Positions 10,019 to 27,418 of a stretch of DNA of 64,000 bases are shown in pieces. A program made the translations under genes and the position numbers. Source of the stretch: Thermoplasmata archaeon (lineage in GTDB: Archaea; Thermoplasmatota; Thermoplasmata; Lutacidiplasmatales; UBA184); NCBI GenBank assembly GCA_035502475.1, contig DATJUJ010000021.1:5098-69097 (forward strand), given 5' to 3'. Every line of letters begins with the position of its first letter. The stretch's first letter is position 1. The notes below the pieces were generated by a model, which had not been told where the DNA came from, made no database searches, and saw nothing but the letters and a program-made list of their open reading frames with translations.

Positions 10019-11320
10019 CTACTGCCGACCCGTCGAGCCCGCCGGAGCATTTACCGCCGCCTTGGGGGGGTCCTCGCCCAACACGCCGCTCGCGCGCAGG
10101 GCGGCGACCCGTTCGGGCGGGTAGCTGAGGAGCTGGATGAGCACGGCCTCGTTGTCCTGGCCGAGCCAGGGCGCTCCGCGCCAGACGCCGCCCGGGGTCT
10201 CCGAGAACTTGGGCGCGACGCCGGCGCCTTGGACCGGCCCGGCAACCGGGTCCTCCCACTCAAGGAGCATCCCGCGCGCCCGGTAGTGCGGGTCTTGCGC
10301 GATGTCCGCGATGTCGAAGACGCGGGTGATCGCCACGTCGTGGGTGCGACCGATCGCCTCGAGCTCGGCCCGCGAGCGGTCCGCGCAGAACGCCGCGATC
10401 GCCGCGTCGACCGGACCCCGGTGGGCGAGCCGGAAGTCCCGGTCGTCGTACGTGGGGTCGGCGAACCCGATCACCTCGCGGAGTCGCAGCCAGGCGTCCT
10501 GGGTCGGCGCCGCGACGACCACCCAGCCGTCCTTCGCCCGGTGGACGTCGTACGGGTGGAGCCGGGCGTGGGCGGTGCCGTAGCGGCCCCGCACGACGCC
10601 CCGCATGAAGTAGTCGAGCGCGAGGTTCTCTAGGAGCATGAAGAACACCTCGTACTGGGCGACGTCGACCGCCTGCCCGTGGCCGGTCCGCTGGGCGTGG
10701 ATGTATCCCATGAGGCCGGCCGTCGCCGAGGCGAGCCCGGTGACCGTGTCGTTGAGCGCCGTGCCCGCCCGCATCGGCGGCGCCGGATCCGGCTCGCCCT
10801 GCAGCGAGAGGAACCCGCTGTACGCCTGCGCCGTGAGGTCGTAGGACGGGGCGCCGACCCGGGCCGGGTCCCCGGTGCGACCGTACCCCGAGACGTGCAC
10901 GATCGTCAGCCGGGGATTGCGCTCCCAGACCTGGGCGTCGGCGAGGCCGAGCTTGTCGTAGGTGCCGGGGCGGGACGACTCGATCCACAGGTCCGAGGAC
11001 GCGAGCAGGTCCAGGAACACGGCGCGGCCCTCCGGGCGTCGGACGTCGAGGCCGACGGAGAGCTTGTTCCGGGAGTACTGGACCCACGACTCGGAGACCG
11101 TCTCCCCCGCCGACCGGCCCGGCAGGAGCGGTCGCAGCGTCCGGGTCGCGTCCGCATACGGCGGCTCGAACGGGGGCCCCTCGACGTGGATCACCTGCGC
11201 CCCGAACTCGCCGAGGTACGTCGCCGCCCACGGGCCCGCGACGAAGCGAGCGGACTCGAGGACCCGCAATCCCGCCAGCGGACCGTACGGCGGTACGAGC
11301 GACCGAGCCCCCTCCGGCAC
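10019..11320 (-). CDS. family III (CaiB/BaiF) CoA-transferase
   Basis: GTG start at 11320 (433 aa); GPLAGLRVLE, AGPWAATYLGEFGAQVIHVE, RNKLSVGLD, catalytic Asp in ALNDTVTG, APWLGQDN. Confidence 0.9.
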   Translation of the reverse strand: MPEGARSLVPPYGPLAGLRVLESARFVAGPWAATYLGEFGAQVIHVEGPPFEPPYADATRTLRPLLPGRSAGETVSESWVQYSRNKLSVGLDVRRPEGRAVFLDLLASSDLWIESSRPGTYDKLGLADAQVWERNPRLTIVHVSGYGRTGDPARVGAPSYDLTAQAYSGFLSLQGEPDPAPPMRAGTALNDTVTGLASATAGLMGYIHAQRTGHGQAVDVAQYEVFFMLLENLALDYFMRGVVRGRYGTAHARLHPYDVHRAKDGWVVVAAPTQDAWLRLREVIGFADPTYDDRDFRLAHRGPVDAAIAAFCADRSRAELEAIGRTHDVAITRVFDIADIAQDPHYRARGMLLEWEDPVAGPVQGAGVAPKFSETPGGVWRGAPWLGQDNEAVLIQLLSYPPERVAALRASGVLGEDPPKAAVNAPAGSTGRQ

Positions 11321-11351
11321 GGCGGACGAGCCCGGGGCGGCTCGATAAACG

Positions 11352-11375
11352 CCGAGGTTCCGTACGGAACCTCGG
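11352..11375. promoter_or_regulatory. perfect 24-bp palindrome (putative operator) between back-to-back TATA-like boxes
   Basis: CCGAGGTTCCGTACGGAACCTCGG equals its own reverse complement; TTTATC on minus (11344-11349) and AAATAG on plus (11381-11386) flank it. Confidence 0.7.
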
Positions 11376-11407
11376 GTCGCAAATAGCCGGGCCCGTTCCG
11401 CTCGGCG

Positions 11408-12145
11408 ATGACGCAGGCCCCGTGGGACGAGTTCGCCGGCGAGAAGTTCCGCGACGAGCTCACGAAGTACAAGATGGCGAACCACCCGTTCGCGACCCAT
11501 CCGTTCTTCGCCCGGCTCGAGCGGGGCGAGGTGCCGAAGCCGGTCGTCCAGGCGTGGGTGAAGCAGTTCTACCCGTGGCTCGCCTGCGTGCCGATCGCGA
11601 TGGCCGAGCGGTTCTCGAACGTCACGTGGAACCCCGCGCACGACCGGTACCGGCGCATGATCCTGGACCAGCTCGTGGAGGAGGCCGGCGACCCGAAGGG
11701 CAAGGAGCCGGGCCACCCCGAGCTCTGGCTCCGGTTCTGCGAGGGGCTCGGCGTTCCCCGGTCCGAGGTCCAGGGCGCGCCGCTCCTCCCGAGCACGATG
11801 GTCGCGATCGACGATTTCCTGTACACCAACCGCGTCAACCCGTTCTACGTCTCGGCCGCGGGTTCGTCGGAGCCTCCGAACGTCGACCTCTGCGCGCGGC
11901 TCCTCCCCGCCTTCCGCACGCACTACCACGTCCCCGAGGAGAACCTCGAGTACTACCGGCTCCACGTGACCGCCGACGTCGAGCACAGCGAGTGGATCGG
12001 GCAGATCGTGGCGGGGTTCGCGAACTCCCCCGAGGTCCGCAAGCAGATGTGGGAGCAGATGCTCCGAGGATTCTCGATCCACGCGCTCCTCGTCGACGGC
12101 GTGCTGGCGGAGTCGAACGGGGCCGCCGCACCCAAGCATAAATAG
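11408..12145 (+). CDS. heme-oxygenase-like diiron enzyme (CADD/PqqC/TenA superfamily)
   Basis: 245 aa; all six CADD-type metal ligands recognisable: LVEE, HPELW, SSE, HxxxDxxH (LHVTADVEH). Confidence 0.85.
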   Translation: MTQAPWDEFAGEKFRDELTKYKMANHPFATHPFFARLERGEVPKPVVQAWVKQFYPWLACVPIAMAERFSNVTWNPAHDRYRRMILDQLVEEAGDPKGKEPGHPELWLRFCEGLGVPRSEVQGAPLLPSTMVAIDDFLYTNRVNPFYVSAAGSSEPPNVDLCARLLPAFRTHYHVPEENLEYYRLHVTADVEHSEWIGQIVAGFANSPEVRKQMWEQMLRGFSIHALLVDGVLAESNGAAAPKHK

Positions 12146-12146
12146 G
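12138..12146 (+). promoter_or_regulatory. TATA-like box for the aro/trp leader transcript
   Basis: ATAAATAGG overlapping the stop of the upstream gene; AAATAG begins 28 nt before the leader ATG, versus 27 nt for the same hexamer before ATG 11408. Confidence 0.55.
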
Positions 12147-12167
12147 TCCTCGGAGGTCCCCCGGGGG

Positions 12168-12239
12168 ATGGCGGACCGACCGGGCCGCGCCGTGCGCGAC
12201 TTCGCGGGCCCCGGGGCCGCCCACACCTGGCTCTGGTGA
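12168..12239 (+). CDS. putative Trp-sensing leader peptide MADRPGRAVRDFAGPGAAHTWLW
   Basis: ATG 12168, TGG at 12228 and 12234, TGA 12237-12239; lies in the 195-nt gap directly upstream of the aro/trp operon; too short for the ORF track. Confidence 0.65.
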   Translation: MADRPGRAVRDFAGPGAAHTWLW

Positions 12240-12268
12240 ACGGGAGGCGCCGGGAGGGCGCCGTCCCC

Positions 12269-12287
12269 GCGTGCTCCGCACGCTTTT
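12269..12287 (+). terminator. hairpin + U-tract in the aro/trp leader (attenuator-like)
   Basis: GCGTGC-tcc-GCACGC followed by TTTT, 53 nt upstream of the first operon gene. Confidence 0.5.
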
Positions 12288-12340
12288 GGGTCGACTCCTC
12301 TTGGCGCTTCCCTGAGCGATAACTCAGGAAAGAAGAGACC

Positions 12341-13093
12341 ATGTACGGCAAAACGATCCGACTGCGGCGCGTGTTCCCGGACCCGAAGCGACGCCTGTTC
12401 TCGGTGCCCCTCGACCACGCGGTGTCGATGGGCCCGATCGACGGCCTCGAGGCGCTCGCGCCGCTCGCGAACGAGCTCCAGTCGAATGGGGTCGATCTCC
12501 TCATCGTGACGAAGGGGGCGGTGCGCGAGGTCGCGCCGATCCTCCGGCCCTCGACCCTGCTGGGGGTCCATGTCTCCGCCTCGACCTCGCTCGGATCGAC
12601 GTCGAACCGCAAGGTGCTGGTCGGCACCGCGCAGGAGGCCGTGGCCCTCGGCGCCGACCTCCTTTCGGTGCAGGTGAACTTCGGCGTCCCGGAGGAGCCC
12701 GAGATGCTGGTCGACCTCGGGCGGGCGGCCGACGAGTGCCGCGCCCTCGGCCTTCCGCTGCTCTGCATGGCCTACGTCAAGAAGGCCAACGGCGGGACCC
12801 CGGACGAGTTGCGGCACGCCGCCCGGGCCGCCGCCGACACGGGCGCCGACATCGTGAAGACGAGCTACCCCGGCTCGACCGAGGAGTTCGCCCGTCTGTG
12901 CCGGACCACGCCGGTGCCGGTGTTGATCGGGGGCGGCGTTCGGCTCGACGACGAGGCGGCGTTCCTCACGCTCGTGCGCTCGAGCGTCGCGGCCGGCGGG
13001 GCCGGCATCTGCATCGGGCGGAACCTCTTCCAGCGCTCGCCCGTGGGACCCCTCGCGGCGCGGATCGCCTCCCTGCTGCACGGAGCCGGCTGA
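12341..13093 (+). CDS. aroA': 2-amino-3,7-dideoxy-D-threo-hept-6-ulosonate (ADH) synthase, class I aldolase
   Basis: 250 aa; VPLDHAVSMGPIDGL, Schiff-base VKTSY, IGRNLFQ; directly upstream of DHQ synthase II. Confidence 0.88.
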   Translation: MYGKTIRLRRVFPDPKRRLFSVPLDHAVSMGPIDGLEALAPLANELQSNGVDLLIVTKGAVREVAPILRPSTLLGVHVSASTSLGSTSNRKVLVGTAQEAVALGADLLSVQVNFGVPEEPEMLVDLGRAADECRALGLPLLCMAYVKKANGGTPDELRHAARAAADTGADIVKTSYPGSTEEFARLCRTTPVPVLIGGGVRLDDEAAFLTLVRSSVAAGGAGICIGRNLFQRSPVGPLAARIASLLHGAG

Positions 13094-13104
13094 GGCGATC
13101 GACG

Positions 13105-14133
13105 GTGGCGCGGGAGCGGATCGCCGTCGCACCGCAGGCCGCCGAGGCGGAGCTGCGTCGTGCGATCGTGGAGCGGGCCCGCCGCCGGGGGTTCGCGCGG
13201 TTCGTCGTGTCCGAGGACCAGCCGCTCTCCGCCGAGCCGGGCGAGGAGGTCCTGGTGCGCCACGCCGACGGGCTCTCGGGCTTTCCCGGGAGCCCCCGCA
13301 TCCCGATCGTCGCGATCGCCTCGGCCGAGGCGCTCGGCCGGGCGGTGGCCGCGGTCCCGGACGGCAGCACGGTCGCGATCGAGTGGGTCGGCGACCGGGT
13401 GATCCCGCTCGAGAACGCGATCGCCGCGCGGGGCCGTCGTTTCCGGCTCTGGGCCTACGCCCGCACGCCGGCCGAGGTGCCCGGCGCCCTCGGCGCGCTC
13501 GAGCACGGCGCGGACCGGGTCATCGTGGAGCTCCGGACCCCCGAAGAGGTCGATACGCTCGAGGCGCTCGTCGAGAGCGCGCTGCCCGCGGGCCTCGACT
13601 GGCAGACGGTCGCCGTGCGCGCCGTCCGCCCGGCCGGGGTCGGCGACCGAGTGCTCGTGGACACGACCTCGCTCCTCCGCCCCTCGGAGGGCCTCTTGGT
13701 GGGCAGCGCGGCCGCGTTCCTCTTCCACGTCGCGAGCGAGGCGATCGGCTCAGCGTTCAGTCGGCCGCGGCCGTTCCGGGTGAACGCGGGAGCCGCCCAC
13801 TCCTACGTGCTGCTCGCGGACGGCACCACCCGCTATCTCGCCGAGCTCGAGGCCGGGGACGCCGTGCTGGCGGTGGAACCGGCCGGCGGGGCTCGAGCGG
13901 TCCGGGTCGGGCGGATCAAGATCGAGCGGCGCCCGATGGTCGTGGTGGAGGCCGAGGTCGACGACCGCCCGCGCACGGTCTTCCTGCAGGAGGCGGAGAC
14001 GGTGCGCCTCTCCACGGACACGGGTCGGCTCGCGACCACCGAGATCCGCCCGGGCGCGCGGGTCCACGGCGTGCGACTGCCGGCGGCCCGGCATCTCGGC
14101 ACAGCGGTCCAGGAGACCATCGAGGAACGATGA
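13105..14133 (+). CDS. aroB': 3-dehydroquinate synthase II
   Basis: GTG start; IEWVGDRVIPLEN, GDRVLVDT, EGLLVGS, RPFRVNAGAAHSY, GRIKIERRP, LQEAETVRL. Confidence 0.93.
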   Translation: MARERIAVAPQAAEAELRRAIVERARRRGFARFVVSEDQPLSAEPGEEVLVRHADGLSGFPGSPRIPIVAIASAEALGRAVAAVPDGSTVAIEWVGDRVIPLENAIAARGRRFRLWAYARTPAEVPGALGALEHGADRVIVELRTPEEVDTLEALVESALPAGLDWQTVAVRAVRPAGVGDRVLVDTTSLLRPSEGLLVGSAAAFLFHVASEAIGSAFSRPRPFRVNAGAAHSYVLLADGTTRYLAELEAGDAVLAVEPAGGARAVRVGRIKIERRPMVVVEAEVDDRPRTVFLQEAETVRLSTDTGRLATTEIRPGARVHGVRLPAARHLGTAVQETIEER

Positions 14134-25490: not shown

Positions 25491-26629
<1,139 letters not shown>

Positions 26630-26646
<17 letters not shown>

Positions 26647-27418
26647 GGCGCTCTCCCGGGCCCGACGCGACCGACGTCCGAGCGTCGTCCCGTACGTCCT
26701 CGTCGATCGAGCGCGGTCGCGCCGACTGGCCGCGACCGTGGCCGCGCTGCGGGACGGCGGGGCGACCGCGCTCGAGCTGGGGTTCCCGTTCTCCGACCCG
26801 ATCGCCGACGGACCGGTCCTCGAGGGCGCCCATGCGCGGGCGCTCCGGCATGGGACGCGCTGGACGGACCTCCGGGCCGCGGTCCGCGAGGCGAGTCGTT
26901 CGCTGCCCGTCGCGGTCATGACGTATGCGAATCCGGTCTGGCATCGGGGGCTCGATCGCGCGCTCGGGGAGCTCGCCGCCGCGGGCGCATCGGGGCTGAT
27001 CGTCCCCGATCTCGCGCTCGAGGAGAGCGGCCCGTTCCGTCGGGCCGCGCGCGTCGCCGGGCTCGACCTCGTGCTCCTCGCCGCGCCGGGGGTGCCCGAC
27101 GCGCGGCTCCGGTCGATCGCCCGGGCGAGCCGCGGATTCCTCTACCTCGTCTCGCGCTATGGGACGACCGGCACGACGGGGAGCGGCCCCGCCCCCGACC
27201 TCGCCCGGCTGGTCGGTCTCGCGCGTCGCGCCGCGCCGGCCCTCCCCGTGCTGCTGGGCTTCGGGGTGCGAGACCGGGCGACCGCCGCGCGCGCGCTCGC
27301 CACCGGGGTCGACGGGGTCATCGTCGGAAGTGCCGTGGAGCAGCACCTCACGGCCCCGGGGGGCGTCGCGTCCCTCGCCCCGTGGCTGCGGTCGATCGCG
27401 AGCGCCCGACGCGCCTAA
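26630..27418 (+). CDS. trpA: tryptophan synthase alpha chain; predicted ACG start at 26630
   Basis: [15 protein letters not shown] (Glu49/Asp60), [34 protein letters not shown]; the frame upstream of the listed GTG start already encodes [19 protein letters not shown] (TrpA N-terminus). Confidence 0.9.

Follow-up and report, generated by a model that had tools for sequence, protein, structure and literature searches.

A 64,000-nucleotide (nt) stretch of DNA from a Thermoplasmata archaeon (GenBank assembly GCA_035502475.1, contig DATJUJ010000021.1, positions 5,098 to 69,097; hereafter the window, whose own numbering is used throughout) carries a 15-gene aro-asd-ask-trp operon preceded by a short open reading frame (ORF) that ends in tryptophan codons. 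On balance, we favor the interpretation that this ORF encodes a Trp-sensing leader peptide, which controls the operon by means of a ribosome-operated, two-state RNA leader. We likewise judge it rather likely that the element is a genuine archaeal ribosome-mediated amino-acid attenuator, in which (i) the terminal Trp codons would serve as a dwell-time sensor, and (ii) a bistable leader would set the translation and, by polarity, the transcription of all 15 genes. The decisive evidence is conservation, which confirms that the leader is real and lies far beyond chance expectation. The window derives from a metagenome-assembled genome (MAG; 81% complete, 1.56-Mb assembly), and every genome with which it was compared is likewise a MAG from an uncultured lineage.

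The leader ORF (12168-12239; this and all other features described are on the forward strand) comprises 23 codons plus TGA and encodes MADRPGRAVRDFAGPGAAHTWLW. It lies in the 195-nt gap between the stop codon of the upstream gene (TAG, 12143-12145) and the ATG of aroA' (12341), and its last codons form the putative sensor block TGG CTC TGG TGA (Trp21, Leu22, Trp23, stop; 12228-12239). A short ORF with at least two codons for the end product of the pathway is therefore present on the same strand as, and upstream of, the biosynthetic operon. A TATA box, ATAAATAGG (12138-12146), has its TAAATA core at 12139-12144, and 29 nt separate the start of this core from ATG 12168. The preliminary description of this DNA had reported the ATG (12168-12170), the two Trp codons (12228-12230 and 12234-12236), the TGA (12237-12239), the 195-nt gap and the gene content of the operon; all of these coordinates proved correct, and the operon content was borne out by Pfam. 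Among 1969 ATG-initiated ORFs of 15-40 codons in the six frames of the whole 1.56-Mb assembly, the leader ORF is the only one with a W-x-W-stop ending, an observation that, taken alone, is suggestive only. The G+C content of the region is approximately 0.65-0.75, so open frames are cheap here.

We therefore rely on comparative data. Thirty orthologous aroA' loci from same-genus genomes, together with approximately 87 archaeal loci obtained by a pattern scan of GTDB species representatives, yielded 82 non-redundant leaders, all from MAGs of Candidatus Lutacidiplasmatales. Every one of the 82 has a T[AT]AATA box followed by a single ATG 28-31 nt downstream, the promoter-to-start spacing expected of a leaderless transcript, and leaders of other genera have a TATA-like box at the same distance from the leader start. 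The distance between ATG and TGA is 69 nt in 68 leaders; 12 others have 72 nt (five leaders), 66 nt (five), or 54 or 57 nt, and one more leader has tandem ATGs, at 69 and 66 nt from the TGA. Despite these indels, the distance is a multiple of three in 81/82 leaders, spanning five length classes. Further, no stop interrupts the leader frame, whereas the other two frames contain 12 and 3. Conservation does not extend to the peptide body, whose composition (Ala, Arg, Gly, Thr, Ser, Pro) is that of a translated GC-rich sequence, with G+C fractions at the three codon positions of 0.77/0.76/0.82, versus 0.77/0.52/0.92 for the operon genes. The short ORF with terminal Trp codons that the preliminary description had singled out is thus conserved in orthologous aroA' leaders despite divergence elsewhere, and it accompanies aroA' even where the gene upstream is a different one (leaders L026-L029 and L032).

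The sensor block, searched for with its downstream context as TGGCTCTGGTGA-NN-GGGRRGC, was found in 102 of the 180 genomes of the family when up to 1 mismatch was allowed, and every one of these genomes belongs to a single GTDB genus; with the pattern reversed as a control, there were 5 hits. Relatives with the element include UBA184, AcS1-45, AcS1-67 and SubAcS13-64, the first three of which are named in the description of Ca. Lutacidiplasmatales (formerly TMEG), a group of uncultured archaea from strongly acidic soils with a G+C content of 67-71% (PMC9287336). The MAGs originate from acidic peat and forest soils, the SPRUCE and Microflora Danica sites among them.

Variation at the end of the ORF is informative. 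Leaders of the main genus end in W-L-W-TGA, with the one-mismatch variants WPW (four species), WFW, WVW (with a GTG start) and GLW. Four other genera share the architecture with unrelated peptide bodies: a TATA-like box, a start approximately 29 nt further on, 20-23 codons, a TGA, and a GC hairpin that begins 0-2 nt later. Their leaders end in WSW (genus g26), WAW (g22 and g24), or WW and WWW (g23); WxW, WW or WWW endings thus occur in five of the seven genera of the family. Only the Trp codons, the TGA and the adjoining hairpin are constant across the family, and TGGTGA is invariant across 25 aligned sequence variants of that hairpin (hairpin A, described below). This pattern of variants is what a codon-counting Trp sensor would predict, and it is hard to square with a non-translated motif.

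Several further observations concern the ORF and its relatives. The nucleotide 5' of the first TGG is C in 80/81 leaders of the genus, and the residue encoded by that codon varies (T, A, S, V, I, L, P, H or Y); the middle codon between the Trp codons is always NYC or GCY (12225-12239 in the window, and its orthologues). No dominant RNA pairing partner was found that would explain the invariant C-UGG-CUC-UGG-UGA, and the C before the first TGG may reflect a decoding-context effect. The only out-of-frame leader, L052 (OY970259.1, a chromosome-level MAG assembly), has an ATG-to-TGA distance of 70 nt (+1), and we suspect an indel error, perhaps from long reads. An upstream ORF encoding MSSTMAFTLTKNSTVYLW, with a YLW-stop ending (L125 of genome G045, from another Thermoplasmata family with 53% G+C), was considered as a homologue and rejected, as its sister L124 has CGG for TGG. 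The L125 ORF ends in CTCTGGTGA, 4 nt upstream of the aroA' ATG, and this ending is probably just a GGUGA ribosome-binding site.

Three genomes (G033, G136 and G156) each contain two leader copies. The extra loci in G033 and G156 were rejected as contig-end duplicates: both copies lie at contig ends, indicating that assemblies tend to break within the leader rather than that additional loci exist. L053 and L072 suggest the same origin for the second copy in G136. Among the loci that lack the leader, that of G061 has a TAAATA box immediately upstream of aroA', and aroA' of genus g21 is itself putatively leaderless. When the whole genome was searched with a crude hexamer list for further leaderless short ORFs downstream of TATA-like hexamers, 12 rows (10 distinct ORFs) were returned, and this leader alone among them is enriched for a single amino acid; the search thus gives no sign that this genome has a broader set of such leaders.

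The RNA downstream of the ORF can adopt alternative structures. Hairpin A (12242-12267) consists of stem strand S1, GGGAGGCGCC (12242-12251), which mimics a Shine-Dalgarno (SD) sequence (SD-mimic 1), a GGGAG loop (12252-12256; SD-mimic 2), and stem strand S2, GGCGCCgTCCC (12257-12267). The spacer between the leader stop and hairpin A is constant in length (2 nt; 0-2 nt over all genera) and variable in sequence. Hairpin A is nearly invariant within the genus, its loop included, and compensatory variants support the stem (GGCACC:GGUGCC in L133 and L134, plus genus-specific forms elsewhere). Further downstream, segment D, CTCCTCTTGGCGCTTCCC (12295-12312; consensus CUCCnnnCGGCGYUUCCC), is complementary to S1 and the loop of A, with which it forms a long-range helix (the Alt helix), and its 3' CUUCCC constitutes an anti-SD. 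The Alt helix is present in the minimum-free-energy fold of the window's leader. Its duplex energy is -30.5 kcal/mol, whereas dinucleotide shuffles give -20.7 kcal/mol; the mean z is -3.5, and z falls below -2 in 93% of leaders. Within the genus, D covaries with S1, in that the GGGAAGCGCCCGGAGGG group has a native energy of -29.7 kcal/mol versus -25.8 kcal/mol with the main S1, and the covariation extends across genera g24, g26 and g22 (for example, GGGGGAGGUGCC with GCCACCUCCCCC in g24). L133 and L134 show, by inspection, the matching change in D, GUGCCUCCC, although the energy swap is neutral there (-33.9 vs -33.5 kcal/mol).

The 3' CUUCCC or CUCCC of D doubles as the 5' arm of hairpin C (CCTGAG / CGATAA / CTCAGG, 12311-12328), whose 3' arm enters the aroA' SD region (12326-12337); the 5' arm thus overlaps D and pairs with the aroA' SD, which is GGAGG in 35/82 leaders. 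Hairpin A and the pairing of S1 plus loop with D are mutually exclusive, and in our models they appear to be placed for selection by ribosome position, the anti-SD being common to the Alt helix and hairpin C. Accordingly, the SD is predicted to be hidden in a hairpin, the partner strand of which another helix can take over; the direction of the switch is the one that we infer below. Two side observations bear on this region. L017 (genome G025) has a 10-nt deletion just after the leader stop that removes one of the tandem GGGAGGCGCC/GGGAGGGCGCC repeats, such that hairpin A is unable to form and the SD-mimic and D remain. The deletion may make L017 naturally constitutive, or it may stem from an assembly slip. 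In four species (L012, L039, L052 and L115), the start position of aroA' is ACG rather than ATG or GTG (aaaacc ACG TAC GGA AAA) and the SD is intact, which suggests a non-canonical ACG start or another start site.

A further helix, P1, closes the 5' end of the RNA. Its 5' arm (UGGCGG, RNA nt 2-7, where nt n corresponds to window position 12167 + n; 12169-12174) includes the U and G of the start codon and pairs with nt 50-55 (12217-12222), a 3' arm fixed 5 nt before the first Trp codon. P1 pairs are canonical in 95% of cases, whereas shuffling the partners 1000 times gave 85%, and at most 88.5%; the pairs show compensatory changes at 4:53 (G-C in 47, A-U in 13) and 6:51 (A-U in 28, G-C in 16, C-G in 11). 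The helix is retained in leaders of other lengths, and its distance to the first Trp codon is constant. Judging from footprint geometry, a ribosome stalled at either Trp codon would cover the 3' arm, and one that has reached the stop codon would just leave it exposed. No alternative downstream partner was detected for the 5' arm, native and swapped energies being equal. The remaining conserved helix, hairpin B (12265-12290), has an inner stem (GCGTGC, 12269-12274; GCACGC, 12278-12283) and an outer CCC:GGG stem (12265-12267; 12288-12290) that overlaps the lower stem of A, with a TTTT at 12284-12287. Its sequence is variable and its helix is conserved: native halves pair better than swapped ones in 79/84 leaders (p = 1e-14).

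Folding energies are consistent with a switch. Over the 82 leaders, the unpaired probability of the SD core is 0.19 with hairpin A enforced, compared with 0.44 in the free, Alt-dominated ensemble, and the same contrast is found in g22, g23, g24 and g26 (0-0.2 vs 0.27-0.87). The energies of the A and Alt states differ little, and large direct-path barriers lie between them (medians 21.7-26.8 kcal/mol), so the leader looks bistable and kinetically controlled. The A-to-Alt barrier falls from 21.7 kcal/mol in the free RNA to 16.7 kcal/mol when the RNA is masked by a ribosome whose A site is on W23, and to 10.2 kcal/mol when the A site is on the stop codon, and the balance shifts toward Alt.

We propose the following mechanism. 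Transcription would begin at, or 1 nt before, ATG 12168 to give a leaderless mRNA, and a ribosome would translate the 23-codon leader, whose sequence would be a mere spacer except for the terminal Trp-x-Trp-stop. Hairpin A (S1:S2) would form first during transcription, making OFF the default: with A formed, D would be free, its CUUCCC would pair with the aroA' SD in an extended hairpin C, and aroA' would go untranslated, the untranslated operon RNA presumably being terminated or degraded (polarity). In the alternative fold, the SD-mimic GGGAGG (S1 plus loop) would pair with D in the Alt helix, leaving the real SD open. Because hairpin A starts 2 nt past the stop codon, a ribosome awaiting Trp-tRNA at the last Trp codon would have its leading edge in the base of A. 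Under Trp shortage, a long dwell would destabilize A and allow D to invade; after release of the ribosome, the SD-mimic would retain the anti-SD, and aroA' would be translated (ON). When Trp is sufficient, passage and release would be quick and hairpin A would persist or re-form (OFF). P1, which joins the start region to codons 17-19, would close the 5' end again behind a ribosome that has moved beyond the Trp codons; its role may be to allow a single round of leader translation or to shield the 5' end.

A simple equilibrium model, in which a stalled ribosome opens the SD, was rejected in favor of this kinetic two-state model. When a ribosome mask covers GGGAG, the mean unpaired probability of the 19-nt region from SD to start (-16 to +3) falls slightly, from 0.53 to 0.45, the anti-SD being transiently free. 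The equilibrium effect of the mask is thus small and opposite in sense, and the ON direction depends on the kinetic (dwell-time) argument. This is one of several points that weigh against the proposed mechanism. The computed barriers depend on nearest-neighbor energies and on an assumed footprint edge that is uncertain by approximately 3 nt, so the kinetics are approximate. In g23, complementarity for the Alt helix is weak (z -0.3 to -1.2). The swap test detected no covariation in hairpin C, because both of its motifs are conserved. P1 covers part of the start codon and could limit translation of the leader itself. Finally, the element is missing from about a third of the genomes of the main genus and from two genera of the family (g21 and g25).

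Other explanations were weighed against the same data. The preliminary description had proposed control of the operon by Trp-dependent ribosome stalling and had pointed to a short 3' end near 12284-12287. In transcription attenuation of the bacterial type, hairpin B and the TTTT would form an intrinsic terminator, and stalling at the Trp codons would favor an anti-terminator. Archaeal RNA polymerase does terminate at oligo-T tracts, and in the window a T4 directly follows hairpin B, a conserved, covarying helix. The tract is nonetheless specific to the window: a run of T4 or longer occurs anywhere in the leader in only 13/82 cases and of T5 or longer in 1/82, at varying positions, and no such run was seen in the g24 and g26 leaders. 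Hairpin B, moreover, forms in both the A and the Alt state, and is therefore not the regulated element. Bacterial-type termination is thus quite improbable; what stands of the earlier proposal is the leader itself, the conservation of its Trp codons and its promoter spacing, and not the terminator. As the T-run is not conserved, the likely output is sequestration of the ribosome-binding site combined with polarity. It is also unlikely, if somewhat less so, that Trp is sensed with an output other than SD sequestration, the stalled ribosome steering either FttA/aCPSF1-type termination in the untranslated 100 nt or a P1-linked, 5'-end-dependent decay. FttA gives polarity in archaea, P1 is strongly supported, and the 3' arm of P1 falls inside the footprint of a Trp-stalled ribosome and outside that of a terminating one. 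The three-way complementarity between SD-mimic, anti-SD and SD is conserved, however, and would be left unaccounted for under either output; nor does the 5' arm of P1 have an alternative partner downstream.

An arrest like that of TnaC, in which the nascent peptide ending in W-x-W, together with free Trp, inhibits release at UGA and the arrested ribosome remodels the leader, would account for Trp residues that always come last, for a stop that is always UGA, and for the finding that the computed A-to-Alt barrier is lowest when the stop codon is occupied. If arrest occurred at high Trp, however, a biosynthetic operon would be turned on when Trp is plentiful. Further, unlike TnaC with its spaced W12, D16 and P24, the peptide body here is unconserved and the middle residue varies freely, while the WW and WWW variants fit codon counting; we regard this explanation as very improbable. 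That the leader contains no sensor at all, and instead acts as a structured RNA to which a protein or a ligand binds, or encodes a functional 23-residue peptide whose Trp codons are incidental, seems to us distinctly improbable as well. The near-invariance of hairpin A within the genus, loop included, is typical of binding sites. A non-translated motif would nevertheless not be expected to keep its frame, to keep that frame free of stops, or to conserve TGG alone among WxW, WW and WWW endings, and a peptide conserved in just its last three residues is unlikely to fold or to act in trans. No Rfam family matches the locus: a cmscan search of 11000-13500 with E-values up to 10 gave four weak, unrelated hits, with no leader or riboswitch family at the locus and no match to the Trp_leader model. 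A T-box-like binding of tRNA by the two UGG triplets was rejected on their spacing (3 nt apart, and adjacent in WW and WWW, compared with the specifier loop and distant UGGN bulge of a T-box) and on the evidence for the frame. A leader bound by TRAP was likewise discarded, as only two GAG triplets are present, compared with the 9-11 (G/U)AG repeats of such sites.

Among known systems, the closest in biological role to the proposed Trp-sensing leader are E. coli trpL (Rfam Trp_leader) and the actinobacterial trp leaders. Like trpL, the element described here has a short ORF with Trp codons near its stop, located just upstream of trp genes, mutually exclusive helices a few nucleotides past the leader stop, and a leader start that is occluded after the first round (here putatively by P1). 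It differs in being archaeal and putatively leaderless, with a TATA promoter, in having its Trp codons at the very end, in its lack of a conserved hairpin-plus-U terminator or an Rfam match, and in an output that is apparently SD sequestration. It has no homology in sequence or structure to the trpL class and lacks the terminator that defines that class. In high-GC actinobacterial genomes, a comparative analysis of leader peptides reportedly found runs of Trp codons before trp genes; these are comparable to the WWW variant of g23, but are bacterial and act via terminator/antiterminator hairpins. In the translational attenuation of ermC and cat, a paused leader ribosome likewise remodels a hairpin that hides a downstream SD; that pause is drug-induced and depends on the nascent peptide, whereas here the cause would be a shortage of charged tRNA-Trp. 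TnaC of the tna operon shares a Trp-related arrest next to UGA, but this leader has no conserved peptide that interacts with the tunnel, and, unlike the B. subtilis trpE leader, at which TRAP promotes an SD-sequestering hairpin, it has no (G/U)AG repeat array.

The closest system in working principle is that of the mycobacterial polycysteine short ORFs, which are leaderless and sensory, as the ORF described here is predicted to be. These are the first cistrons of their operons, exert amino-acid-specific translational attenuation with an operon-level effect, and control the sequestration of a ribosome-binding site (Canestrari et al., bioRxiv 10.1101/834739). They are bacterial and respond to Cys, whereas the archaeal leader would respond to Trp and is predicted to combine an SD-mimic/anti-SD/SD design with a bistable leader and a 5'-closing helix.

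The control of trp genes that has been characterized in archaea, by TrpY in Methanothermobacter and at Trp-repressed promoters in Haloferax, acts at the level of a DNA-binding protein or the promoter. The present element would serve the same pathway as a cis-acting, translated RNA leader. In bacteria, attenuation by leader peptides follows, in the textbook account, from the coupling of transcription to translation. Full-text literature searches found no report of an archaeal leader-peptide attenuator, and we know of none that has been described.

The gene upstream of the leader (11408-12145) encodes a protein of the TenA/PqqC or iron-containing redox enzyme family, according to Pfam. Its own start, ATG 11408, is preceded at 27 nt by AAATAG, confirming an observation of the preliminary description. 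In most species, this gene ends ...AAG NNT AAA TAG (12130-12146 in the window, and its orthologues), so its last codons and its stop, the TAG contained in ATAAATAGG, also serve as the TATA box of the leader promoter.

The operon itself extends from aroA' (12341-13093; a DeoC-family aldolase by Pfam, ADH synthase) through trpA at approximately 27418, and ends in trpEGDCFBA. Its Pfam families are DeoC, DHQS II, DHquinase_I with Shikimate_dh_N, GHMP kinase, EPSP synthase, chorismate synthase, Asd, AA_kinase, Chorismate_bind, GATase, TrpD, IGPS, PRAI and PALP. These correspond to ADH synthase, DHQ synthase II, aroD-aroE, a GHMP-type kinase, EPSP synthase, chorismate synthase, asd, an amino-acid kinase and trpE/G/D/C/F/B. 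The trpA frame (26738-27418) was taken from the frame listing, outside the Pfam scan; an overlapping frame (26160-26921) gave no Pfam family.

The gene content of the genus bears on why an operon that begins with the common aromatic pathway would respond to tryptophan alone. Prephenate dehydratase (PF00800) was found in 0/41 genomes of the genus, while all 14 control genomes were positive, and prephenate dehydrogenase (PF02153) gave only weak, partial hits, in 7/41 genomes of the genus. It is probable that chorismate cannot be converted to Phe or Tyr in these archaea, and their shikimate route seems to feed tryptophan only, which makes a Trp-only sensor sensible for the whole aro-trp operon.

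The element has a clear and falsifiable anatomy, in which a 5' AUG and terminal Trp codons are followed, after a 2-nt spacer, by an SD-mimic, an anti-SD and an SD, and it is represented by approximately 100 natural variants; together, these make the proposal directly testable in a heterologous host. If the proposed mechanism is true, a domain whose transcription resembles that of eukaryotes either evolved leader-peptide sensing or kept it. The mechanism would also account for how an unusually long supra-operon, reaching from aspartate to tryptophan, is regulated in uncultured yet abundant archaea of acid soils.

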